A stretch of 64,000 nucleotides of DNA from a virus. Taxonomy: Duplodnaviria; Heunggongvirae; Uroviricota; Caudoviricetes. The translations under genes and the position numbers were made by a program. Below are positions 5,487 through 57,304 of this stretch, one piece after another (the stretch's first letter is position 1; every line of letters starts with the position of its first letter). The notes under the pieces are model-generated. The model was not told where the DNA came from. It did no database searches and saw only the letters and a list, made by a program, of their open reading frames with translations. Location of the stretch: IMG/VR virus record IMGVR_UViG_2917461297_000001, positions 56,643 through 120,642 of that record. One strand, written 5' to 3'.

Positions 5487-6499
5487 TGTTTTACAATAGT
5501 TTGTATAAGAGACAGTTTTTACAATCTTTAGAGCGTGAAAACGAAATAAGAGTGTATACTGCATTATTCAATAACAGCAGTAAAGTAGAGCAACAATTCG
5601 ATACTGATTTGTATAACTTTACAACTTCTGAAATAGAAATTTTGCTTTATAATATCTATTCCTCCAGTAAAAACACTTTACTAACTTATTTAACATTTGC
5701 TAAAAAGTATACTGATTACGCTATCGAGAGAGGAGATAGATTATCTAACATTAATTTGTTCAGAATGTTTACGTACGATAAGATTGATAAGTTTGTATAT
5801 AAACATAAACAAAAGTTTTTCACGTACGAGAAATTCCTACTACATGTTAGTAGCTTCTATAATGCTAGCGATAGAGCATTAGTTTCAGCAATCTTTCATG
5901 GCATTTCTGGGGCGGCTTATAGCGAACTAATCAATCTAACCATCGATGATATTAAAGAAGCTAGAAGTAATCCAACACATGTCGCTGGTGATGAACAATA
6001 TTATAAATTGAGGCTTTTAAACGATAAGAAAGGTGAAACAATTGAGCGCTATATTGAAGTGCCAGAGGTTTTGTTAGATGATATGGAAAAATCATATAGA
6101 GCTACAATCTATTACACCAAGAACGGTGACCCTAGTTCTAGAAGACCTGCAAAAGACATAATAGGCGGAAATCATATTTTTAGAAATGTCGAGTTTACTG
6201 ACACCACAACAGAACAAATTGATAAGCAAGTAGTATATAGACGAATGAAAGTCCTACAAGACTTAACTAACAATTACATTTCAAGTGTTACTAACGTAAT
6301 TGATTCTGGTATATTGCACTATATGTATTTACTATCAGAAAACGGAAAATTAGATTACATGAAAATAGAAAAAGTGATGAGAAGATATAGTAAACACATT
6401 TATGAAAAGTCACTACCATATACAATCGCTAGGTTTATCAAACAATATCAAGATGCTTTACAAGATTTATATGGAGTAGTAATAGTGAATAAGCCCTAA
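5486..6499 (+). CDS. recombinase-like protein, catalytically degenerate
   Basis: N-terminal integrase SAM-like pattern. The box I-like stretch GISGAAYSELINLTIDDI lacks the catalytic Arg, and no HxxR/Y pair is evident. Confidence 0.3.
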   Translation: MFYNSLYKRQFLQSLERENEIRVYTALFNNSSKVEQQFDTDLYNFTTSEIEILLYNIYSSSKNTLLTYLTFAKKYTDYAIERGDRLSNINLFRMFTYDKIDKFVYKHKQKFFTYEKFLLHVSSFYNASDRALVSAIFHGISGAAYSELINLTIDDIKEARSNPTHVAGDEQYYKLRLLNDKKGETIERYIEVPEVLLDDMEKSYRATIYYTKNGDPSSRRPAKDIIGGNHIFRNVEFTDTTTEQIDKQVVYRRMKVLQDLTNNYISSVTNVIDSGILHYMYLLSENGKLDYMKIEKVMRRYSKHIYEKSLPYTIARFIKQYQDALQDLYGVVIVNKP

Positions 6500-22767: not shown

Positions 22768-25074
22768 ATGAAACAATTAGTATTACTTAGAGGCGCGCCA
22801 GCTAGTGGTAAGTCAACCTTTTTAAAAGAAAATGGCTTAGAACCGTTCGCATTATCACCTGATGTGTTAAGGTATTCGGCACCAGTAGTCAACGAAACAG
22901 GTCAACTGGTAATGTCTCAAGAAAACGATAATAAAGTATGGAAGTTGTTGTTCGAGATTCTTGAAGAGCGTATGAAAAATGGTGATTTTATTATTGTCGA
23001 TGCTACTCATTCAACAGCTAAACTAATTAACAAATATAAAAAATTAAGAGAAAGTTATGGTTACCGTACATATGTGGTTGATTTTGATATACCCTTAGAA
23101 GAATGTTTAAAGAGAAATAGCCGAAGAAAAGAGTATGAATTTGTTCCAGAAGAAGCTATTGAGAATATTCATGAACGATTAAAGTACGAGAATATTCCTA
23201 GTTTTGCTAAAGTGTTAAAACCAGAAGAATTGTTGGAAGAAATTGAATGGAAAGTGCAAGATTTTAATCAATTTAATAAAGTCAAAGTTATTGGTGATGT
23301 GCATGGTTGCTATACTGCATTAAATGAATTAGTTACATATGAAGAAATTGCTGATAATCAAGACACAGCTTATATTTTTGTAGGAGATTTGTTCGATAGA
23401 GGGTTAGAAAACGCAAAAGTATTTGAATTCATTGAATCTATTTATAACTTGTCTAACGTGTTTCTGATTGAAGGGAATCATGAAAGACATTTGAGAACAT
23501 ATATAAAAGTATATGACGAGTTAATTGATGAGCTTAATTATAGCTTAGGTGATACTGAAAAAGATAAGTACAATAAAATGTATAAATACATTAAGTCTCG
23601 TGGATTCATTCAAACGACACTAAAAGAATTTTTAGATAGTGGAATCACAAAAGACCGAGTAAAGCCAATCCTAAGAAAATTGCTACAATGCTTGTATTTT
23701 GAGTTAAATGGTTCTCAATATATTGTGACTCATGGTGGTATTTTACCGAACATGATTCCAAATTTAAACTTAGTTTCTACTAGCCAATTAATTAATGGAA
23801 TTGGTGGATATGAGTTTGAAATCGATGATGAATGGAGTGATGAAAACTTTTACATGATTCAAAACCGTATTATTCAAATACATGGTCACAGAAATCTTTA
23901 TCGTATTCCATTGGACGTAGATGCAAGCTCAATCAACTTAGAAGGAAGAGTTGAGAAAGGTGGGCATTTGAGAGCCATTACTATTATTAAAGGGAACCCT
24001 TTTGTTAAGAACAAAATTGAGACTCATGAAATTAAGAATGATGTGTTTGACTCAAAATGGTTAATTTCAGACGATTACACAGAAAAGTTAGATGTTGATT
24101 TAACAGTAGAACAATTTATTGATGCAGCAAAAAGTGATAGAAAGTATATCAAAGTTCAAAATCAATATGATAATGTGTGCTCTGTTAATTTCACATCAAA
24201 GCTGTTTAATAGTGGGAAATGGAATCAGTTAGCAGTGCATGCAAGAGGGTTATTTGTTAAAGACGATGGAGCGGATAGTGTAGTTAAAGGTCGAGCGTAT
24301 AACAAATTCTTCAACATTGATGAAAACAAAAAAAATAAATTAGATAAACTTATTGACAGACTGGAGTTTCCTGTAAAAGCATATCGAAAAGAAAATGGAT
24401 ATTTAGGAATCCTGTTTTACGATAGTGATATTGACGAACTTGTGTATGCTTCAAAGAGTAAAACTCACAAAGCAAAGTATGACAATCAATATGCGTTGTG
24501 GTTCAAGGATATAGTTGAGAATGCTTTAAGTGTTGATGAATTGGAGAGGCTAAAAAATGAGCTTAAAGAGTACAACGCATCAGCTGTGTTTGAAGTAATT
24601 GATGTTAAGAATGACCCACACATCGCTAAATATGATAGAAGTAAAATTATACTCTTAGATGTTGTAAAGAACCAACTACAATTTGAAAGAGTGAGTGAAG
24701 ATTACAGTCGAGAACTAGCTGCTATGATTGGACTAGAGCACAAGGAGTTAGAGTTTACTTTCAATAACTGGCAAGATTTCTATCAATGGTATAAGGTGCA
24801 AATTAAGAGCTTGGACGCAAAACATGAAGGTTGGGTACTTGAAGACAGCAAGGGCTATATGCTCAAGATAAAATCTAAATGGTACAAAGACTGGAAGTAT
24901 ATTAGAAAGTTCATTGGTAAGATTAACACTGGTTATTCACCAAAACAATTTATTTTACAAAGTAACCATGAAGTAAGAGATTTTTATTACTGGTATAAGA
25001 AAAATGGAAAGAAAACAGATAGAGATAGCGACTTAATTAGATTGAGAGATGAGTTCTACGAACAAGAGGGTTAA
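22768..25074 (+). CDS. Pnkp-like RNA repair enzyme (5'-kinase / 2',3'-phosphatase / ligase-type nucleotidyltransferase fusion)
   Basis: N-terminal P-loop LLRGAPASGKSTF. Central calcineurin-like motifs GDVHGCY, GDLFDRG, GNHE, THGG and GHRN. C-terminal nucleotidyltransferase motif I KxDG (FVKDDGAD). Same architecture as bacterial Pnkp. Confidence 0.6.
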   Translation: MKQLVLLRGAPASGKSTFLKENGLEPFALSPDVLRYSAPVVNETGQLVMSQENDNKVWKLLFEILEERMKNGDFIIVDATHSTAKLINKYKKLRESYGYRTYVVDFDIPLEECLKRNSRRKEYEFVPEEAIENIHERLKYENIPSFAKVLKPEELLEEIEWKVQDFNQFNKVKVIGDVHGCYTALNELVTYEEIADNQDTAYIFVGDLFDRGLENAKVFEFIESIYNLSNVFLIEGNHERHLRTYIKVYDELIDELNYSLGDTEKDKYNKMYKYIKSRGFIQTTLKEFLDSGITKDRVKPILRKLLQCLYFELNGSQYIVTHGGILPNMIPNLNLVSTSQLINGIGGYEFEIDDEWSDENFYMIQNRIIQIHGHRNLYRIPLDVDASSINLEGRVEKGGHLRAITIIKGNPFVKNKIETHEIKNDVFDSKWLISDDYTEKLDVDLTVEQFIDAAKSDRKYIKVQNQYDNVCSVNFTSKLFNSGKWNQLAVHARGLFVKDDGADSVVKGRAYNKFFNIDENKKNKLDKLIDRLEFPVKAYRKENGYLGILFYDSDIDELVYASKSKTHKAKYDNQYALWFKDIVENALSVDELERLKNELKEYNASAVFEVIDVKNDPHIAKYDRSKIILLDVVKNQLQFERVSEDYSRELAAMIGLEHKELEFTFNNWQDFYQWYKVQIKSLDAKHEGWVLEDSKGYMLKIKSKWYKDWKYIRKFIGKINTGYSPKQFILQSNHEVRDFYYWYKKNGKKTDRDSDLIRLRDEFYEQEG

Positions 25075-32938: not shown

Positions 32939-33098
32939 TCTGTCACCTCACACACACATTGTAGAACATTTGTTCTTGTTGGGCAAGAGAATATGTTTTA
33001 TATATTAGTAAGATGTGTTTATTTTTTAAGCGCACCTTTTTATTTGGGCGGTGATTATACAGATTATGAAAAGATTAAAAATAAATTAATGAATATTG

Positions 33099-33127
33099 TT
33101 GACATATAGAAAATGAGGTTGTATAGT
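33099..33127 (+). promoter_or_regulatory. strong sigma-A promoter driving the TnpB-like gene
   Basis: TTGACA at 33099-33104, 17-nt spacer, TATAGT at 33122-33127; the AAATAAATTAAT motif lies 8 nt upstream. Confidence 0.6.
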
Positions 33128-33169
33128 ATTAAGTGTAACAAAGAAAAAAAATTAAATGAGGTGAAACGA

Positions 33170-34522
33170 ATGGAAAGTGAAAAAGAAAAATATGTCGTGC
33201 AATCGTACGGGATTAAGCTAATTAAACCAGTAGGTGTTGATGAAGGAGATTGGGATTTTGCTGGTAAAGTGTTAAGAGATTTAGACTACGCTTGCTTTAG
33301 AGTTAAAAATAAAGCAGCTACTAGAACTTACATGAACGTAATTGAGAAATTAGAATATGAAAACATTCATGGTAAAGGAACATATGATAAGTATTTTAAA
33401 ACGAGATATGGTAAGACATTTTCAGCCTATAACAGCGAATGCGCAAGAGAAGATAAAGAATTAAATAAAGGAGATTTATACAGAGAATATTTCAATTTAA
33501 TGGCTCGTGAGGGTGAAAAGGTTGTAAAATATAACATGAAAAAAATATTAAATGGGAACGCAAGCAACATTACTTTCAAAAGAAATCAACCAGTCCCTAT
33601 AACTTCAAGAATGATTTTTATCACAAAAGAAAGTGGGAAATATTATGCTGAGTTGACTTTGCTAAGTCCTGAAAAAGCGAAAGAGCTTGGCAGAAAAGGG
33701 AAGAATGGTACAAGAATCAAATTTTTACTTAGCTCTAAAGGACAGGAAAAAGTTATATTAGACAGATTAACAAGTGGTGAATATGATTTAAGAGATAGTC
33801 ATATTCACGTTAAAAAGAAAGGAAATAAATTAACTAACTATTTAATCATTGCTTATAGACATAAAGTAAAAGACGATAACGATTTGATTCCGAATAAAGT
33901 ATTAGGTGTTGACTTAGGAGTATCAAAAGCGGCATATATGGCTGTTAGTGAATCACCAGTGTCTGAATATATAAATGGTGGAGAAATTGAGCAGTTTAGA
34001 AATGGCGTTGAAGCTAGAAGGAACGGCATGAGAAATCAGTTGAAATATCACTCTAGCAACAGAAGCGGACATGGCAGAGCAACGAAACTAAAGCCGTTAG
34101 AAAAACTTAGAGAGAAAGTCAGCAATTTTAGAAAACTAACAAATCATCGTTATGCTAAATTTATTGTTGATACCGCATTGAAAAATAATTGCTCAATTAT
34201 TCAAATGGAAGAATTGAAAGGTATCTCGAAAAACGACACATTTCTGAAGCGTTGGAGTTATTTTGATTTACAAGAAAAAATTGAGAATAAAGCAATAGCA
34301 GTAGGTATTGAGGTGAAAAAAGTTTCTCCTAAATTTACCTCTCAAAGATGTAATAAATGCGGTTATATCGATAAAGAGAGCCGAAAAAGTCAAGAGAAGT
34401 TTGAATGTGTGAATTGTGGGCATAAAACTAACGCTGATTTAAATGCCGCAAGAAACCTTTCAATGCTCAATGTTGAAAAAGAAATAAAAGCGCAATGTAA
34501 GGCACAAAAAATTAAGTATTGA
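33170..34522 (+). CDS. TnpB/Cas12-like RNA-guided nuclease (RuvC + zinc finger)
   Basis: RuvC-I VLGVDLGVS, RuvC-II IIQMEELKG and RuvC-III NADLNAARNL, with the zinc finger CNKCGY...CVNCGH between II and III. Start moved to ATG 33170 (RBS GAGGTG) because 33113 lies inside the promoter. Confidence 0.75.
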   Translation: MESEKEKYVVQSYGIKLIKPVGVDEGDWDFAGKVLRDLDYACFRVKNKAATRTYMNVIEKLEYENIHGKGTYDKYFKTRYGKTFSAYNSECAREDKELNKGDLYREYFNLMAREGEKVVKYNMKKILNGNASNITFKRNQPVPITSRMIFITKESGKYYAELTLLSPEKAKELGRKGKNGTRIKFLLSSKGQEKVILDRLTSGEYDLRDSHIHVKKKGNKLTNYLIIAYRHKVKDDNDLIPNKVLGVDLGVSKAAYMAVSESPVSEYINGGEIEQFRNGVEARRNGMRNQLKYHSSNRSGHGRATKLKPLEKLREKVSNFRKLTNHRYAKFIVDTALKNNCSIIQMEELKGISKNDTFLKRWSYFDLQEKIENKAIAVGIEVKKVSPKFTSQRCNKCGYIDKESRKSQEKFECVNCGHKTNADLNAARNLSMLNVEKEIKAQCKAQKIKY

Positions 34523-34749
34523 AAATAAATTAATAAATTAAATATCGCAAGGTGCTAAACGTCATAGCATCGTGGCAGTATCATGTCACAAAATCGAGAA
34601 AGTGTCGTTTTAACAAGGTAAATACATAATTTTTAACGATATATAAAACGAAATACACTCGAAAGGTAAACTGAATAATCAGTTTGAAATCTAGCTCACA
34701 AATACCGAGTTAGACTACTCGCCAATGTTTGACGTTAGATTGGTTAGAG

Positions 34750-34903
34750 GTAACAGTACCAAGTTATTTAACAGAGTAGTGATACTATAAATTCGGTACA
34801 TGTAGTAATCTTCTAGTAACAGTACCAAGTTATTTAACAGAGTAGTGATACTATGATGGTATAGTCTTTTACCCACAGCATGTAACAGTACCAAGTTATT
34901 TAA
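34750..34903 (+). CRISPR. CRISPR-like mini-array (2 full + 1 degenerate 39-bp repeat, two 27-bp spacers)
   Basis: GTAACAGTACCAAGTTATTTAACAGAGTAGTGATACTAT at 34750-34788 and 34816-34854; spacers 34789-34815 and 34855-34881; third copy 34882-34903 matches the first 22 nt and then diverges. Confidence 0.6.
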
Positions 34904-35037
34904 AAAGATAAATTAAATATATAACATGAATAGAAAATTTATAATAGATTAGTTTGCAAACAGAGAAATGGTAAAATGTAAAAAATAGTTATAAAATTTA
35001 AGCGATATTAAAAATAAATGAAAAAGGAGACTTAAAA

Positions 35038-35418
35038 ATGAGTCTGTGTGTGGTAAATTATTATGACACTAGAAACAAGTATTTATCTTCTGTACTTTTC
35101 GATTCAGACGTTGACGCTATGGAGGAACTCGAGAGTAATAATTATTATATGAAAAAGTGGGGTAATTATTATAATGACGAAACACAAAAATATGCAGTAA
35201 TAGAAAAATGCATTAGAAATATAAGATATTCAGCAAATAACTCAAATGATGAGCTAAAGTGTTTTGTACTATTTTCTAGAGAAAGATATAAGGAAGAATA
35301 TTCAAAAGATTTTGTCAGTGCTTATATTTCAGATGAAGCAGGAGTGAAGAAACTGATTAATGAGCTATATAGTGTTGACGATTTTAATAATTTAATATAT
35401 AGTTATGAAGTGATATGA
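35038..35418 (+). CDS. hypothetical protein
   Basis: 126-aa ORF with RBS AAAGGAGA. Confidence 0.4.
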   Translation: MSLCVVNYYDTRNKYLSSVLFDSDVDAMEELESNNYYMKKWGNYYNDETQKYAVIEKCIRNIRYSANNSNDELKCFVLFSRERYKEEYSKDFVSAYISDEAGVKKLINELYSVDDFNNLIYSYEVI

Positions 35419-39858: not shown

Positions 39859-41262
39859 ATGGCAGAAAGAAACGAATATGTACTACACCATAACCATTCA
39901 TATTACTCTAACTTGCGTTTAACAGATGCGATTACTTCACCAAGACAATTAATCGAGACAGCCAAACAATATGGTTATAAAGGTATGAGTATTACTGAAC
40001 ATGAATCACTTTCTAGCGCTGTCGATATGATTAAAACAGTGAAAGAGATGAAAGCTAGTGGAGAATTACGAGAAGATTTTAGAATGCTGTTGGGCAATGA
40101 AATCTATCTCGTTGATAGCTTGGAAGAGGTTAGAGACAACTATGAAAGCGGAAAAACAAAATTCCCACATTTTTGTTTAATTGCAAAGAATAGAAAAGGT
40201 TTTGAAGCATTAAGTAAATTAAGCTCACAAGCGTGGAAGAATTCGTTTTTTAGTAGTTCTATTATGGAACGTGTTCCAACTGAAAAAGCATATTTAAGAG
40301 AAGTAGCGCAGTCAGATGAGTATAAAGGAACATTGATGGCAAGCAGCGCATGTCTTGGAAGCCCAATCTGCTTATATTTACAAGAAAAAATGCTTATGGA
40401 ACAAACTTTTGATAAAGAAAAGATTCAAGAAGCACACAACAAAGCTAAAAATGAAGTTCAATGGTGTGTTGATACATTTGGTAAAGACGATTTTTACATT
40501 GAATTACAGCCAGCGGATACACCCGTGCAACGTTATGTTAATGAAAACTTATTAGAGTTTGTTAAAGAATTTGATTTAAAATATATAGTTGCTTGTGACA
40601 CACATTACGCCAACAAGTCTCATGCTACAATTCATGCTGCATTTCTCAACTCTAAAAATGAAGAGCGTGAGGTAGAAGAGTTCTATAAGTATACATATAT
40701 GCATAGTGTAGACGATATTTATAAACAAATGGCTTACTATTTAGGTGAAGACGTGGTCAAACAAGCGCTAGAAACTACAACGGAATTATACGATAAATCA
40801 GAGGATTATGACTTAGCCCATTCACCAATTATTCCACGAGCCGAGATTCCTGAATTTGAGTTAAAGCACTTGTTTCAGCCCGCTTATGACAAATATAAGA
40901 GTCTTGAAAGATTAGCGTATTCTGATAAGAAAGACGAAAGATATATGCTTCATTTGTTAGAGGAAGGTTATCTGAGGGAGCTACACAAAGAAGATATAAC
41001 TAAAGAAGAGTTTCATCAAATATTAGCAAGGCTAGATGTTGAAATGGAAGAGATTTTAGGTGTAGGAGATAAGATTAATCAAACAGTAAGCTCATACTAT
41101 ATTACTGTGCGTGATATAATCAACACAATTTGGGAAGAAGATACTTGTAACGGATATTCTGGTTCATTAGTTGGCAGTGGACGTGGGTCATCTGGTGGTT
41201 TCTTATCATTGTTCTTACTTGGAATTACTCAAGTTAATCCATTAGAACATAAAAATATGCCA
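39859..41262 (+). CDS. dnaE: DNA polymerase III alpha (DnaE-family), exon 1 (PHP domain and start of catalytic core)
   Basis: PHP signature YVLHHNHSYYSNLRLTDA. Homology runs to ...NPLEHKNMP; the annotated ORF then reads into non-homologous sequence and stops at 41349. Confidence 0.55.
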
Positions 41263-41656
41263 CATTTCAGACATTTGCATAAAAGTCGTCAAGATTTCCC
41301 TAAATTATTGGGGATTAAATGTGAACGCAAGACAAAGCGGTGTGCTTAGAATTATTCTAAGTGCTAACAGTATCAGTTGAATAAGACTACCATTCAAGCC
41401 TTACAAGGAGATAATGGAAATAAATTAAAAGACGAAGCAGCTGACTAAGAGAGCCTAAGGTCTATTAATAAAAATAGATAGCTGGTAATACTGTGCGAAG
41501 CCTTTAGTTCAAAGGAACGTGCAACGACTATCCTGTAAAGGAGTACGCCTGATTTTGTCACAGGTGGAAGCGCATTTACATACATATGTATGGTGATATA
41601 GTCTATTCCGACTGTTAATTCAGTGTTAAAGTATTAGGAAACTAACGGTGTATAAG
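41263..41656 (+). ncRNA. putative ORF-less group I intron interrupting dnaE
   Basis: About 394 nt with no ORF, inserted inside the conserved NPERxSMP-DIDIDF region; the 3' end is ...UAUAAG (terminal G); exon 2 resumes in frame with DVDVDIE. Confidence 0.4.
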
Positions 41657-44143
41657 GACGTAGATGTAGACATAGAAAGTAAACGAAGACAAGAAGTTAT
41701 TCGAGCATTAAAGAATAAATATGGTGAAGATAAGGTTCTAAATGTTGCTACTTTTACAACAGCTGGTACTAAATCTTGTATTAAAATAGCAGCAAGAGGA
41801 TTGGGAATCGAGGATACAGAAGCCCAATATATTGCTAGTTTGATTCCAACTGAGCGTGGACAACAGTATACACTCAGTGACTGTTTATATGGCAATGAAG
41901 AAAAAGGTAGAAAGAAACAACAACAATTTATTAATGAGATGGAAAAGTATCCAGAATTATTGAAAACAGCTTTAGGTTTAGAAAGTATTGTCGTTGCTAA
42001 ATCACAACATGCTGGTGGAGTAATCATCTTTAATGATGAGATTCATAAACACAGTGCAATGATGAAAGCGGCAAAAGGAGAAGCAAGTATTACTCAATGG
42101 TCGCTTAAAGATAGTGAGTACATGGGTTTAGTAAAGTTTGACTTATTATCGATTGATAACTTGGATAGGATTAGAAGCACCTTAGAATTGATGGAAAAAG
42201 ACGGTGTGATTGAATCAAAAGGAAGTCTAAAAGATACATTTAACGAGTATCTACACCCACGTGTACTTAATCATGAGGATAAACGTTACTATGAATTAGC
42301 TTCAAGAGGGATAGTAAACGATACATTCCAATTCAACACTAATATTGGTATTGAAACATTAAAGAGAATCAAGCCTGAAAACTTTGAACAATTCAGTGCT
42401 GCTAACTCATTAATGCGATTGCAGTCACAAGAAGGTAAAGAACCACCAATGGACATTTTCATTAAGCATAAAGAAAACATTCAAACTTGGTATGATGAAA
42501 TGAATGAGTGGGGATTAACAGATAGCGAAATTAAGGTTATGGAAGAGCATATTGGACATACGTTAGGAGTCTCTCCTGTGCAAGAACAAGCTATGGGACT
42601 ATCTGGAGACCCTAGAATCGCAAACTTCACTGTAGAAGAGCAGAATAAGCTCAGAAAGGCTATTGCAAAGCCAAAAGGAGCGGCTTTAGATGAAATAAAA
42701 TTGCTGTTTTATCGTAAAGGTAAGAAACAAGGAACAAGCAAAAACTTACTTGATTATGTATGGGAAACTCAATTCACACCAATGTTCAGTTATGCATTCA
42801 GTTCCATTCACTCTAATCTGTACTCAATCATCGGTATTCAGAATTTACATCTCAACTTGTTCTACAATCCAATCTATTGGCAAACAGCGTGTTTAAACGT
42901 TGACAGTGGCGCTACATCAGAAGATAGTGAATTTCTCGTAGACCATGAAAAGATTGCTAATGGTATTGGTAAGATTAAAGAGTTCGGTGTAGAAGTTAAG
43001 TTACCTGATGTTAACAAGTCTGATTTTGCGTTTACACCTGACGCTGAACACAATGTAATCATTTATGGACTTAAGCCTGTTAAGTCATTAAACTCAAAGA
43101 CAACGCACCATATTATCGAAAACAGACCATACAACTCTATCGAAGATGTACTTACTAAGCTATATGACAATAAACTGGTTACAAACACACAATTAATTAA
43201 TATGGTTAAGTCTGGCATGTTAGATAACATTTGCGAGTCACGTAAAGTAGCGATGATGGAAGTTATCAAACATATAACTAAAGTCCCTGAAACTTTGACT
43301 ATGCAAAATATTAAGACATTAATTGAGTCCGGTATTCTTGAAGGTAGACCAGAAGAAGAAATGGTGCTATTTAGAGAATCATTTAAGAACAAAGTGGTCA
43401 GAAAAGAGAAGCAAGGTAAATATAATGTTAAGATATTTAAAGTTGAAGATATGGAATTGTACGACAAATTGTTTGGTAACACAGGTGTCGTAAATGTTAC
43501 AAGTAACTATTATGAAGTTGATGAGAAGCAGTTCAAGAAAGTGTTCGATAAGAAGATTAAAGACCTTAAAGAATGGTTAAAGTCTGATGAGCAACTTAAG
43601 AAAGTACAGAGTTATGAATTGAATAAGCAGTGGATTAAATATGCTTTAGGTAGTTATTCAAAATGGGAAATGGAAACATTGTCGTTCTACTACCATGAAC
43701 ACGAGCTATCTCAAGTAGACAGTAAAATGTACAACCTAAGCAGATACAATGAATTGCCTGAAGAACCCCAAATAGTTGATACATTTATGTTTAAAGGAAG
43801 AGAGTTCCCTAAGTACAAAATCGATTCAATTGCCGGTGTTGTGATTTCTAAGAACGCTACAAAGAATATGGTCACAATTATTGCTACCGATGGTTCAGTA
43901 GTACCAATTAAGTATCAAGGAAATTTCTCTTACTACAACAAGGCAGTAAAAAGAAATGGCAAGATAGTTGAGGATAGTTGGTTTGGTAAAGGGAATTTAT
44001 TAATTGTTAGTGGATTTAGAAGAGGTAATCAATTTGTCGCTAAGAGATATGCTGATTCAAACACTTCCACGACAACAAAGCTAATTGATTATGTAGGAAA
44101 GAACGGCGAAGTCACTTTTAAACTAGAAAGAGAATATATTTAA
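41657..44143 (+). CDS. dnaE: DNA polymerase III alpha (DnaE-family), exon 2
   Basis: DVDVDIESKRRQEVIRALKNKYGEDKVLNVATFTTAGTKSCIKIAARGLGI aligns with DnaE PDIDIDF...RREEVI..KYG...TFGT..AK..IRDVGRVLG. Confidence 0.6.
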   Translation, partial: DVDVDIESKRRQEVIRALKNKYGEDKVLNVATFTTAGTKSCIKIAARGLGIEDTEAQYIASLIPTERGQQYTLSDCLYGNEEKGRKKQQQFINEMEKYPELLKTALGLESIVVAKSQHAGGVIIFNDEIHKHSAMMKAAKGEASITQWSLKDSEYMGLVKFDLLSIDNLDRIRSTLELMEKDGVIESKGSLKDTFNEYLHPRVLNHEDKRYYELASRGIVNDTFQFNTNIGIETLKRIKPENFEQFSAANSLMRLQSQEGKEPPMDIFIKHKENIQTWYDEMNEWGLTDSEIKVMEEHIGHTLGVSPVQEQAMGLSGDPRIANFTVEEQNKLRKAIAKPKGAALDEIKLLFYRKGKKQGTSKNLLDYVWETQFTPMFSYAFSSIHSNLYSIIGIQNLHLNLFYNPIYWQTACLNVDSGATSEDSEFLVDHEKIANGIGKIKEFGVEVKLPDVNKSDFAFTPDAEHNVIIYGLKPVKSLNSKTTHHIIENRPYNSIEDVLTKLYDNKLVTNTQLINMVKSGMLDNICESRKVAMMEVIKHITKVPETLTMQNIKTLIESGILEGRPEEEMVLFRESFKNKVVRKEKQGKYNVKIFKVEDMELYDKLFGNTGVVNVTSNYYEVDEKQFKKVFDKKIKDLKEWLKSDEQLKKVQSYELNKQWIKYALGSYSKWEMETLSFYYHEHELSQVDSKMYNLSRYNELPEEPQIVDTFMFKGREFPKYKIDSIAGVVISKNATKNMVTIIATDGSVVPIKYQGNFSYYNKAVKRNGKIVEDSWFGKGNLLIVSGFRRGNQFVAKRYADSNTSTTTKLIDYVGKNGEVTFKLEREYI

Positions 44144-55195: not shown

Positions 55196-57304
55196 ATGAG
55201 CAAATGGATTGAAAAGAATAACGAAATGATGAGAAGAGATTCAGTGGGTCAATTAAGCCTTCATAAAGATAAAGAAGCTATTGAACTTTATCTCCAACAC
55301 GTTGATTCAAAAACAAAAAAGTTTACGAATGAGATTAATCGACTTCGCTACTTAGTTGAAGAAGGCTATTATATTGACGTATTTGAGCAATATAATGAAT
55401 CAGATTTAATTGAGCTTACTGAATATGCATACTCATTCAATTTCGAGTTCCAAAGTTTCATGGCGGCAAGTAAATTCTATGAAACATACGCATTGAAGAC
55501 ACGGGATAAGAAGCAATGGTTAGAAAACTTTGAACAACATAATGTAATTGTTTCATTGTATCTAGCTAATGGTGATGTAGAACAGGCTAAGAAGTACATC
55601 AAAACACATACTTTACAAACTGTTCAAACAGCTACACCTACATATTTAAATGCAGGGCGTAAACAACGTGGAGAATTAGCTTCATGTTACTTATTTACAA
55701 TGGACGATACATTGAATTCAATTAACTTTATTAGAGGTCAAGTATCACAAGCAAGTAAAATTGCGGGTGGTGTTGCAGTAAACTTAACTCGTTTGCGTGG
55801 ACGTGGCGCACCTATCAAAGGTATTAAGAATGCTGCTAAAGGTGTGTTCCCTGTGGCTAAGTTAATTGAAGGTGAGGTTGGTTATGCTGACCAAATGGGC
55901 TCAAGAGATGGTGCAGGAGCCGCTTATCTTAACATCTTCCATTCAGACGTTATTGAATTATTGAACAGTAAGAAGATTAATGCTGATGAAGGAGCTCGAT
56001 TAGCGACTCTATCCATTGGGTTAATTGTTCCCTCACTATTCTTTGATTTAGCTAAGGACAACAAAGACTTGTACATGTTTGAACCATACTCAATTGAAAA
56101 AGAATACGGCGTAATTCTTGATGATATTAATATCGCTGAATGGTATGACAAATTAGTTGAGAACGAGAATATTGTTAAGAAAAAGATGAACGCACGTGAC
56201 ATGCTGAATATGATTGCACAAACACAATTGCAATCTGGATACCCATATATCATGTATAAAGATAATGCTAATAAGAATCATGCTTTGAACGAACATGGCG
56301 AAGTGAAAATGTCTAACTTGTGTACAGAAATTTTCCAATACATGAACGTATCAGAAATCAACGACTACCATAAAGAAGATAACTTAGGACAAGATATTAT
56401 TTGTAATTTAGCTTCGTTAAATATGGTTAAGTCGATTGAAGAAAACGCAGTTGAGGAATCAATCAGAACAGGAATGAGAGCTTTAACATTTGTAGCAAAT
56501 AACTCACGTATTGAACATTTACCATCTGTTCATAAAGCAAACAAAAATATTCGTGCCGTTGGGCTTGGAGTAATGTCATTCCACTCAATGTGTGCCAAGA
56601 ATCAAATTAGATACGGCTCAGAAGAATCATTAGACCTAATTAATGTTTACTGTATGATGATGGATTATTATTCATTAGATGAATCAATGCGAATTGCAAA
56701 AGAACGCAACGATAAATTCTATGGTTTTGAAACATCTGATTATGCAATTAAAGATAAAGAATACGGTGAATATTTCTATAAAAACAATCGTGTAACAGAA
56801 GATGTTAAGCCTGTAACTGATAAAGTAAAAGAAATCTTTAAAGATATTTACATTCCAACAAAAGAAGACTGGCAACGTTTAGCAAAAGATGTTGGTAAAT
56901 ATGGTTTGTACAACGGATACAGGCTTTCGGTGGCACCAACCCAGTCTATCAGTTACATAACAAACTGTAGTTCAGCATTAACGCCTGTTGTCGATATTGT
57001 TGAACGACGCACATATGGTAATTCAGAAACATTCTACCCAATGCCATATTTATCACCACAAACAATGTGGTACTATTCACCAACAGCATTTGAAATTCCA
57101 AACGAACATATTATCAATGTAGCTGCTGTTGCACAGAAATGGATTGACCAAGGTGTTTCAACAATCTTATTTGTTAATAGCGAGATTGAAACTAACAAGC
57201 TAGCTAGATTGTACGCATATGCACATGATAGAGGATTAAAATCACTCTACTATACTCGTAATAAGTTGTTAAGCATTGCTGAGTGTACAAGTTGTGCTGT
57301 GTGA
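55196..57304 (+). CDS. nrdE: ribonucleotide reductase class Ib alpha subunit
   Basis: 702 aa; active-site MSNLCTEI; C-terminal CTSCAV redox pair; nrdI upstream and nrdF downstream. Confidence 0.8.
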   Translation: MSKWIEKNNEMMRRDSVGQLSLHKDKEAIELYLQHVDSKTKKFTNEINRLRYLVEEGYYIDVFEQYNESDLIELTEYAYSFNFEFQSFMAASKFYETYALKTRDKKQWLENFEQHNVIVSLYLANGDVEQAKKYIKTHTLQTVQTATPTYLNAGRKQRGELASCYLFTMDDTLNSINFIRGQVSQASKIAGGVAVNLTRLRGRGAPIKGIKNAAKGVFPVAKLIEGEVGYADQMGSRDGAGAAYLNIFHSDVIELLNSKKINADEGARLATLSIGLIVPSLFFDLAKDNKDLYMFEPYSIEKEYGVILDDINIAEWYDKLVENENIVKKKMNARDMLNMIAQTQLQSGYPYIMYKDNANKNHALNEHGEVKMSNLCTEIFQYMNVSEINDYHKEDNLGQDIICNLASLNMVKSIEENAVEESIRTGMRALTFVANNSRIEHLPSVHKANKNIRAVGLGVMSFHSMCAKNQIRYGSEESLDLINVYCMMMDYYSLDESMRIAKERNDKFYGFETSDYAIKDKEYGEYFYKNNRVTEDVKPVTDKVKEIFKDIYIPTKEDWQRLAKDVGKYGLYNGYRLSVAPTQSISYITNCSSALTPVVDIVERRTYGNSETFYPMPYLSPQTMWYYSPTAFEIPNEHIINVAAVAQKWIDQGVSTILFVNSEIETNKLARLYAYAHDRGLKSLYYTRNKLLSIAECTSCAV

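Follow-up and report, generated by a model that had tools for sequence, protein, structure and literature searches.

A probable AsCas12f-clade miniature CRISPR-Cas system (type V-F1) in an SPbeta-like prophage of Staphylococcus delphini

We present evidence from comparative sequence analysis that a short locus within a 64,000-nt stretch of viral DNA (positions 56,643 to 120,642 of IMG/VR record IMGVR_UViG_2917461297_000001; hereafter the window) is very probably a complete, miniature CRISPR-Cas system of type V-F1 (formerly V-U3), which belongs to the AsCas12f clade and resides in an SPbeta-like prophage. The locus consists of a cas12f gene for a nuclease of 450 amino acids (aa), a predicted trans-activating CRISPR RNA (tracrRNA) and an array with two spacers (Table 1). 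It combines the features by which type V-F1 is recognised, namely full-length homology to characterised Cas12f1, a single RuvC D-E-D site into which a CCCC zinc finger is inserted, the protein being 400-700 aa long, an adjacent array whose spacers vary among related loci, a long, anti-repeat-bearing tracrRNA predicted in silico between cas12f and the array, and no cas1, cas2 or cas4 in the locus. The first-pass annotation of this DNA had proposed an undescribed system or a TnpB-to-Cas12 intermediate. This proposal has to be given up: the protein aligns end to end with characterised AsCas12f1 and with the PADLOC profiles Cas12f and Cas12u3, the order gene-tracrRNA-array is that of the published AsCas12f locus (PMC8548392), and phage-encoded V-F/V-U variants with compact arrays and without adaptation genes have been reported before (PMC7162821). 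The locus belongs to a known type and is a new, mis-annotated member of it in a tractable host and phage.

A Cas12f1-type nuclease

In a phmmer search of the PDB, the five best-matching chains were 8J3R, 8J1J, 8J12, 8DZJ and 7WJU (E 5e-81 to 2e-77, residues 10-440 of 450), which bear generic depositors' names and which we take to be AsCas12f. Residues named in the paper on the AsCas12f1 structure (bioRxiv 10.1101/2023.07.03.547593) are recovered with the numbering of 7WJU. D248 of the window protein aligned to AsCas12f D225, the residue mutated in nuclease-dead dAsCas12f; QMEEL aligned with QMEDL, NADLNAARN with NADYNAARN, and the zinc-finger cysteines at all four positions. D248, E347, D423, C394, C397 and C413 were invariant in a 32-sequence family alignment and C416 was conserved in at least 90% of its sequences, and the 450-aa open reading frame (ORF) with three RuvC motifs and a zinc finger that had been described earlier is confirmed. 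Two PADLOC profiles, Cas12f (1e-120) and Cas12u3 (3e-119), matched end to end, and the Cas12f1-like TNB domain of Pfam was found at 8e-20.

The longest reading of the gene would yield 469 aa from 33113. The 450-aa start was preferred because GAGGTG precedes the ATG at 33170 and because 33113 lies upstream of the -10 box. The near-consensus sigma-A promoter that the first-pass annotation had placed here scored 11 of 12 in a consensus scan and is the only strong promoter-like site, with both hexamers (-35 and -10) kept in five relatives (protein identities 97%, 89%, 67% and 65%). The dN/dS ratio of 0.11-0.13 (window compared with its 89% and 97% relatives) indicates that cas12f is an intact nuclease gene under purifying selection.

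A mini-array with exchangeable spacers

Downstream of the gene lie two perfect 39-nt copies (34750-34788 and 34816-34854) and, from 34882, a third that loses its match after 22 identical nt; with a period of 66 and a TRF score of 183, the repetition is far above chance. These copies were already seen in the first pass, where they were read as 39-nt repeats with 27-nt spacers. Alignment with the homologous loci of close relatives gives a unit of 36-nt repeat and 30-nt spacer instead, the 39+27 reading having arisen because both window spacers start with TAT. The 3' half that the terminal repeat has lost is the part that would form the CRISPR RNA (crRNA) handle and the repeat:anti-repeat duplex, and 3'-degenerate terminal repeats are also present in the Staphylococcus pseudintermedius relatives and in Macrococcus armenti. 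A 59-aa minus-strand ORF across the array (34715-34894, peptide repeat SITTLLNNLVLL) is an artefact of repeat translation and no gene.

Spacers differ between homologous prophages, which is not what a conserved, non-variable structure with the same spacers in all homologs would give, and the earlier reading of the repeats as a CRISPR array, not as IS605 ends, is upheld by this difference. The same two spacers are carried by two S. delphini assemblies (that of the window, L175, and L186), and S. pseudintermedius L003, with a 97% identical protein, has one spacer that differs from those of the window. Eight distinct spacers were found in 11 S. pseudintermedius loci with near-identical Cas12f (proteins P0002/P0124) and arrays of 1-2 spacers. 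Here the trailer-proximal spacer is common (TGAGGATT… in four strains, TATCATAACG… in six) and the tracrRNA-proximal spacer is strain-unique in each of five strains. Staphylococcal relatives together hold 12 distinct spacers, with no more than two per array in 15 loci. Judged from these sequences, the distribution is the pattern of leader-end acquisition, i.e., of polarised turnover; if spacers had only been lost, the ancestral array would have to have held six or more, and each strain would have had to undergo two precise deletions, the strain maximum being two spacers. No Cas1 or Cas2 homolog was detected in the 64-kb window (tblastn, E > 0.7), and neither cas1 nor cas2 is among the called neighbour genes of the source genome and the relatives.

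A covarying RNA between gene and array

The 227-bp gap between cas12f and the array is almost invariant among close relatives and still alignable where protein identity is 67%, 65% and 53%. RNAalifold, applied to five relatives, returned five stems and a 7-bp repeat:anti-repeat duplex, in which 21 of 55 pairs show compensatory double changes. Of the alignment cells at these pairs, 97% are paired, compared with 29-41% after the partners were slid by 1-3 columns, and the slid controls had double changes at only 0-5 pairs; the observed covariation was reached by none of 500 shuffles. The repeat:anti-repeat helix (helix 6) has two pairs with compensatory changes, with further ones in the M. armenti locus, and the single-sequence minimum-free-energy fold of the window gives the same helices. 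Between the window and its 89% relative (L004), the tracrRNA core is 89% identical and third codon positions of cas12f are 75% identical, which points to purifying selection on the tracrRNA. In M. armenti, the module has the order tracr-array-cas12f and the tracrRNA still abuts the first repeat; together with the covarying repeat:anti-repeat duplex, this fixes the strand and direction of the array.

From covariation and position we conclude that the gap encodes a structured RNA of ~180 nt, predicted to be a tracrRNA placed as in AsCas12f, where a 169-nt tracrRNA lies between gene and array and the crRNA consists of the 3' part of the repeat plus the spacer (PMC8548392). That the gap could encode a tracrRNA had been suggested in the first pass from a hairpin and a 7-nt complement of the repeat, and the covarying pairs and the duplex bear this out. 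The hairpin at 34667-34686 is the covariation-supported stem 3, although its loop had been miscopied (the actual sequence is AAACTGA-ATAA-TCAGTTT), and the 7-nt stretch ACTACTC (34714-34720), which pairs with GAGTAGT, is the covariation-supported anti-repeat. Rfam gave nothing for the locus (E ≤ 1), for the whole window or for 15 related loci, the last scan being aimed at CRISPR-DR families.

Evidence against the assignment and possible targets

Several observations weigh against the assignment to a type V-F1 system. Among the NCBIfam models only the generic guided_TnpB was passed (145.6 bits, cutoff 100), and the Cas12f2 model (NF049972) reached 97.4 bits at a cutoff of 450, which leaves the protein outside type V-F2. 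A consensus scan found no consensus promoter or terminator for the tracrRNA or the array. Annotated truncations of Cas12f to 119-141 aa (P0125, P0129, P0133, P0134) occur on 36 or more contigs of S. pseudintermedius, so the system has been lost or the gene disrupted in some lineages of this species. The two spacers of the window were without a match in 50,697 phage records and 72,556 plasmid records (blastn), as well as in IMG/VR (22-mers) and the JGI metagenomes. Lastly, the 5' flanks of one perfect and two imperfect protospacers of relatives (GCCT, GTTA and TCAA; the perfect one is flanked by GCCT and, on its other side, CTGCAT) disagree, and therefore no protospacer-adjacent motif (PAM) is claimed.

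The first-pass annotation had asked for the spacer comparison with phages and plasmids and had supposed a use of the array against competing mobile elements; for the window itself this use finds no backing, as the two spacers lack a detectable target, and target and role are therefore drawn from relatives and the literature. The window spacers have no self-match in the 64-kb window with up to three mismatches allowed. Seven further S. pseudintermedius spacers gave no significant match, IMG/VR returning the array itself only. Spacer 5 of M. armenti matches the gene interior of Macrococcoides canis plasmid pMiCAN82c (30/30, E 3e-5), and the L003 spacer matches serine-recombinase (resolvase) genes of enterococcal and macrococcal plasmids (27/28 and 27/30, E 9e-3), which as target evidence is suggestive only. 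V-F arrays are in general short and target both phages and plasmids (PMC10691335). We infer from these relatives a role of the locus in defence or inter-element conflict.

A different use is improbable, but of the alternatives it survives best. The locus could encode a functional RNA-guided nuclease that does not serve the defence against foreign DNA and is directed at the host or at relatives of the prophage (superinfection exclusion, lysogeny control, addiction), or it could be a decaying relic. Against this reading stand the purifying selection on cas12f and tracrRNA, the missing self-match within the window and the plasmid matches of two spacers from the wider clade, and decay in particular is at odds with the leader-end turnover of spacers. 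These arguments have to be set against the outcome that none of the nine spacers tested (S. delphini and S. pseudintermedius) matches phage or plasmid records at significant E, against the small arrays (at most two spacers in the 15 loci) and the common truncated cas12f alleles, and against the position in a variable cargo spot, beside a MazE-Fic pair in relatives.

It is very unlikely that the locus is the remnant of an IS200/IS605- or IS607-type TnpB transposon, in which an omega-RNA and duplicated right-end or guide segments would take the place of a CRISPR array. The IS-specific models IS200_TnpB and IS607_TnpB (NF038281 and NF038280) remained far below their cutoffs (50.4 vs 425 bits and 42.9 vs 350 bits), although guided_TnpB is the only curated NCBIfam model passed and public annotation names the protein TnpB or transposase; the comparison of the protein with Cas12f/V-U and TnpB profiles, recommended in the first pass, hence favours Cas12f and Cas12u3. 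The best homologs are characterised CRISPR effectors, and arrays in the family reach 22 repeats. Neither a TnpA nor a serine recombinase is adjacent, and none was called within ~3-6 kb in the source genome or relatives, in agreement with the earlier remark that no IS200-type TnpA (HuH) lies nearby; moreover, the same syntenic prophage position is occupied in many strains. The scaffold RNA does abut the first repeat without a gap, as an omega-RNA scaffold abuts its guide, but the 29-30-nt segments vary among strains with the same protein and one of them matches a plasmid at 30/30. A single omega-RNA with a guide from the right-end flank was likewise considered and rejected: what follows the scaffold is instead an array whose spacers can be exchanged and whose terminal repeat is degenerate.

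A type II-like array format

In most of the family, the repeat is ~32 nt and the spacer ~34 nt long and the junction reads TTTGC[ACT]^GTTGCAA (^ marks the junction). The Staphylococcus/Macrococcus clade has a 36-nt repeat, a 30-nt spacer and the junction ..TT(T/A)GAG^GT…, and only the staphylococcal clade copies the junction and repeat ends of the host type II array (..GAG^GTTTTAGT…GTGATAC, 36+30). The SauCas9-like type II locus of S. pseudintermedius encodes cas9, a type II Cas1 (TIGR03639, 2.9e-86), cas2 and a fourth gene of 331 aa. In the SauCas9-like type II loci L189 (11396-12391) and L190 (4647-5642), this fourth gene occupies the csn2 position and had no Pfam or NCBIfam match. The array of the S. 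pseudintermedius type II locus comprises 25 repeats with ..GCTAGAG^GTTTTAGTACTCTGTCAAATTAGGTATAAGTGATAC and 30-nt spacers; that of Macrococcus capreoli reads ..TAGAG^GTTTTAGTACTCTGCGTTTTTAGGTATAGGTGATAC. The host type II arrays of L189 and L190 run ..TAGAG^GTTTTAGTACTCTG…GGTGATAC and the prophage arrays ..TT(T/A)GAG^GT(TTT/AAC)AGT…GTGATAC; the type II format (36-nt repeat, 30-nt spacers, GAG leader, GTTTTAG start, GATAC end) was found in the prophage arrays. The V-F repeat of S. pseudintermedius (GTTTTAGTTCTATACGAATTAACATAGTGGTGATAC) shares with the host type II repeat its first 8 nt, last 7 nt, length and spacer length and agrees with it at 24 of 36 positions, a value reached by 0 of 100,000 shuffles. 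The window repeat (GTAACAGTACCAAGTTATTTAACAGAGTAGTGATAC) shares the last 7 nt and the TAGAG^GT junction and agrees at 21 of 36 positions (p ~1.5e-4). Pairing with the Cas9 tracrRNA would call for a host-like 5' part of 20-24 nt, which is absent; the repeat interior has diverged, which places the prophage array outside the type II system.

That the array is a type II-like orphan used by host Cas9, next to an unrelated TnpB-like gene, is hardly credible even though repeat and spacers have the lengths, and the repeat the 8 initial and 7 final nt, of the host SauCas9-type array and the flank ends in GAG like a type II leader (PMC7999890), because the stretch that must pair with a Cas9 tracrRNA, the first 24 positions of the repeat, agrees with the host repeat at only about 14 (manual count), the internal GAGTAGT covaries with the adjacent Cas12f-type tracrRNA, the tracr-array module is linked to cas12f in all relatives in any gene order, and the degenerate terminal repeat removes the Cas12f handle and not the Cas9 part.

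For an array that serves Cas12f, we tentatively propose, as a possibility that we rate below even chances, that the staphylococcal V-F array is a hybrid built for filling by the host type II adaptation machinery. According to this hypothesis, host type II Cas1-Cas2 would insert spacers beside the tracrRNA acting as leader, and the repeat interior would pair with the Cas12f tracrRNA while the repeat ends and lengths copy the SauCas9-type array of Staphylococcaceae. Such filling would explain strain-unique leader-proximal spacers in the absence of cas1 and cas2. Polarised integration in type II needs a leader-anchoring sequence, and its conserved core is the GAG with which the leader terminates at the 3' end (PMC7999890). 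A check for co-variation gave no support to filling in trans, as the type II repeat of M. capreoli ends in GATAC and the V-F repeat of M. armenti in GAAAC; a type II locus of M. armenti itself was not found. The SauCas9-like Cas9 cluster has only eight members in S. pseudintermedius, which also weighs against filling in trans, and the type II-like format could equally reflect an old recombination event.

Proposed mode of action

The mode of action proposed here is modelled by homology on AsCas12f, which forms a 2:1 protein:RNA complex and recognises the PAM YTTN or NTTR (PMC8548392; bioRxiv 10.1101/2023.07.03.547593). Briefly, the promoter at 33099 would drive cas12f, and ACUACUC of the tracrRNA would pair with GAGUAGU of each repeat. 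The mature crRNA would consist of the 3' portion of the repeat (~AACAGAGUAGUGAUAC) followed by the spacer. A Cas12f dimer carrying one tracrRNA:crRNA might then locate a protospacer adjoining a 5' PAM, where the single RuvC site would cut both DNA strands. The role could be interference with competing mobile DNA such as plasmids, other phages and islands, to the benefit of prophage and lysogen. The array would turn over by gain of new spacers at its tracrRNA-proximal end, on an element without Cas1 or Cas2.

Prophage setting

A protein identical to the window Cas12f is encoded on the chromosome of S. delphini (LR134263.1), where it is recorded as "RNA-guided endonuclease InsQ/TnpB family protein". 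The window further encodes YolD, DnaB-like, RecJ-like and Pnkp-like proteins, a split DnaE-like protein, an ATP-dependent ligase, a ribonucleotide reductase and a large serine recombinase. The DnaE-like protein has an identity of 60% with its counterpart in Staphylococcus phage SPbeta-like and of 41% with SPBc2 YorL. By gene content and these identities, the host element is an SPbeta-like prophage of S. delphini, as the first-pass annotation had it. A 118-kb IMG/VR viral contig holds the S. pseudintermedius relative of the locus. Megablast of 33000-35040 against phages returned zero matches, and cas12f is absent from the sequenced SPbeta-like staphylococcal phages, in which TnpB-like tblastn matches were merely weak. 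The cas12f system is therefore accessory cargo, situated in the early or replication region of the prophage. Its position is syntenic across many strains, flanked by YolD (or MazE-Fic) on one side and by the same small genes downstream. A MazE-antitoxin/Fic pair lies between the YolD-like gene and cas12f in S. pseudintermedius prophages (L003/L004 5184-5823; L176-L185 ~686-1323) and is missing from the S. delphini window (32939-33169), which places cas12f in a variable cargo hotspot. Many of the S. pseudintermedius prophages with this pair also have a phospholipase A2-like gene further upstream.

Other genes of the window are of interest in their own right. A 768-aa protein (22768-25074) unites domains of a P-loop kinase, a metallophosphatase and a T4-type RNA ligase, as in Pnkp-like RNA repair; it is kept beside the cas12f region in relatives L167 and L169 and probably counters tRNA or RNA nucleases of the host. 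The SPbeta-type DnaE-like DNA polymerase is distributed over two ORFs (39859-41349 and 41648-44143) with a gap of ~300 bp. Its first part likewise has 496 aa in L003, S. pseudintermedius L004 and L005 have a single 1309-aa product, and the name 'dnaE_1' suggests that the gene of Staphylococcus phage SPbeta-like is split in the same way; no intron was detected by Rfam at this site.

Table 1. Predicted features of the type V-F1 locus (coordinates are those of the window)
Feature	Coordinates	Strand	Basis or remark
Sigma-A type promoter of cas12f, TTGACA-17 nt-TATAGT	33099..33127	+	Consensus scan, 11/12; predicted
Ribosome-binding site GAGGTG, 6 nt 5' of the ATG at 33170	33158..33163	+	Read from sequence
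cas12f (type V-F1, AsCas12f-like), 450 aa	33170..34522	+	PDB phmmer, PADLOC, conserved catalytic residues, dN/dS
RuvC residues D248, E347, D423	33911-33913, 34208-34210, 34436-34438	+	Motifs GVDLG, MEEL, NADLNAARN
CCCC zinc finger C394/C397/C413/C416	34349-34417	+	CxxC…CxxC
Predicted tracrRNA (5' end approximate)	34565..34749	+	RNAalifold covariation, position; transcription predicted
tracrRNA stems	34572-77/34584-89, 34594-611/34645-62, 34667-73/34680-86, 34691-97/34707-13, 34721-26/34739-44	+	
Anti-repeat ACTACTC in tracrRNA	34714..34720	+	Pairs with GAGTAGT of the full repeats (34774-34780, 34840-34846)
CRISPR repeat 1, 36 nt, GTAACAGTACCAAGTTATTTAACAGAGTAGTGATAC	34750..34785	+	Abuts tracrRNA 3' end ...TTAGAG
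Spacer 1, 30 nt, TATAAATTCGGTACATGTAGTAATCTTCTA	34786..34815	+	
CRISPR repeat 2, 36 nt	34816..34851	+	Identical to repeat 1
Spacer 2, 30 nt, TATGATGGTATAGTCTTTTACCCACAGCAT	34852..34881	+	
Terminal degenerate repeat	34882..34917	+	34882-34903 (22 nt) intact, 3' half lost

The wider family

Homologous loci were retrieved from genomes (80) and from IMG/VR (80); viral contigs with a near-full-length homolog number about 20 and measure 50-150 kb. Arrays were sought at 68 loci, which took in the window, its relatives, genomes and IMG/VR viral contigs. Arrays with a period of ~66 nt lie beside most of them, at some 40 homologous loci, and mostly start 190-330 nt past the stop codon, a spacing that leaves room for a tracrRNA. 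Chromosomal arrays run to as many as 22 repeats, whereas those of viral contigs have 2-6. Members of the Cas12f branch are accompanied by arrays alone and by no cas1, cas2 or cas4, and the array is located downstream (PMC10691335). Arrays are also carried by Bacillus phage Mgbh1 and Alicyclobacillus phage MMB025; in the latter, one array bears the annotation CRISPR, whereas the effector is called a 'transposase'.

Some of these loci deviate in their arrangement. MMB025 (L002 / L097) has two mini-arrays upstream of its Cas12f homolog (2458-2948), one with 38-nt repeats and period 75 and one with 40-nt repeats and period 74. The 53%-identical system of M. armenti (CP083608.1; L170 1-11278) is part of a different integrated element beside an rRNA/tRNA cluster, in the order integrase, helix-turn-helix protein, tracr, 5-spacer array, cas12f and AAA/STAND-like gene, followed by IstB-like, DnaB-like and primase genes. 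Three IMG/VR loci (L109-L111) encode a 31%-identical homolog with an array of 28-nt repeats (GTCTCCCCCGCGTGTGCGGGGATGGACC, period 61) 419 nt downstream (5691-5901). The format of these repeats presumably resembles that of type I-E, and this may be a further instance of a phage array in the format of a host array. Clostridial V-F repeats of 32 nt with the end ..ATTGAAG may resemble type I-C repeats.

Implications

A clade of bona fide Cas12f from mobile elements of S. delphini, S. pseudintermedius and Macrococcus carries the public label TnpB or transposase. CRISPR surveys of these veterinary and zoonotic pathogens report type II and III-A systems only (PMC10624692), the Cas12f clade having been missed on account of these labels. 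AsCas12f and SpCas12f1 have an optimum of 45-55 °C (PMC8548392), and the 450-aa ortholog described here, its host being a 37 °C organism, is a candidate compact editor that, with tracrRNA and crRNA now delineated, can be tested directly. The natural series of arrays with the same protein and different leader-end spacers offers, together with the type II-like junction, a tractable handle on spacer gain by V-F1/V-U systems without Cas1-Cas2. If the array is indeed a hybrid, it would show concretely by what route V-F1/V-U arrays without adaptation genes obtain spacers and would exemplify a phage that arms its own nuclease via host immunity. In addition, a temperate, cultivable SPbeta-like phage family joins the viruses equipped with a type V interference module of their own.

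Comparison with known systems

AsCas12f1 of Acidibacillus sulfuroxidans (PDB 7WJU, 8DZJ, 8J12, 8J1J, 8J3R) aligns with residues 10-440 of the window protein, most closely in the C-terminal RuvC/zinc-finger half, and shares with it the RuvC D-E-D site and the CCCC zinc finger at a similar size (450 aa in the window, 422 aa in AsCas12f1). Both loci have the order cas12f, long tracrRNA, array, both lack cas1, cas2 and cas4, and in both a multi-stem tracrRNA has a short repeat:anti-repeat duplex beside the guide. The PAM-reading Tyr76 of AsCas12f is aligned to a Tyr in the window protein, in a part of the alignment of low confidence. Unlike AsCas12f1, which resides on the chromosome of a thermoacidophile, the window system is found in a mesophilic staphylococcal prophage. 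Its array has 36-nt repeats and 30-nt spacers, in contrast to ~32+34 in most of the family, and is a mini-array of 1-2 spacers whose leader-repeat junction and repeat ends resemble those of the host type II array, and the sequence of its tracrRNA has no detectable similarity outside the Staphylococcus/Macrococcus clade.

Un1Cas12f1 (Cas14a1; type V-F1, uncultured archaeon; PDB 7C7L, 7L48) is likewise a miniature RuvC/zinc-finger effector, acts as a dimer on one long tracrRNA:crRNA, and aligns in its C-terminal half with the window protein (E 1e-27 to 1e-28). This alignment covers only residues ~197-432, and Cas14a has an extra N-terminal zinc finger, whereas the window protein is on the AsCas12f branch. 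Cas14a genes lie beside cas1, cas2 and cas4.

TnpB of IS200/IS605 elements, e.g., ISDra2 TnpB, has the same superfamily fold with a RuvC/zinc-finger core, and its scaffold RNA, too, is encoded directly downstream of the gene and has the guide on the 3' side. In contrast to these elements, the cas12f locus has no transposase, transposon ends or mobility, and its guide function is split into tracrRNA and exchangeable spacers. TranC proteins (LaTranC, PDB 9JFO/9JFQ) are TnpB-derived effectors linked to CRISPR arrays, the class that the first reading of the locus had in mind. LaTranC matches the window protein weakly (E 5e-4) and over residues 312-432 only; the window protein is nested among bona fide Cas12f1 effectors and is therefore not a TnpB-CRISPR intermediate.

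In Flavobacterium columnare, type VI-B arrays are reportedly filled by type II-C Cas1-Cas2. The cas12f locus resembles that case as an effector plus array without cas1 or cas2, with a type II-like leader-repeat junction and evidence of leader-end spacer gain. It differs in that the receiving array is on a prophage and of type V-F, and adaptation in trans is hypothetical here.

Compact type V systems of phages (Cas-phi/Cas12j, Cas-lambda and the V-F/V-U systems of huge phages; PMC7162821) are, like that of the window, virus-borne, with compact arrays and no adaptation genes, and their presumed use is in conflicts among mobile elements, as here. PDB matches of Cas-phi to the window protein are marginal (E 2e-4, C-terminus only), and Cas-phi needs no tracrRNA. 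While those systems derive from metagenomic huge phages, that of the window belongs to a temperate SPbeta-like prophage of cultured, tractable staphylococci.

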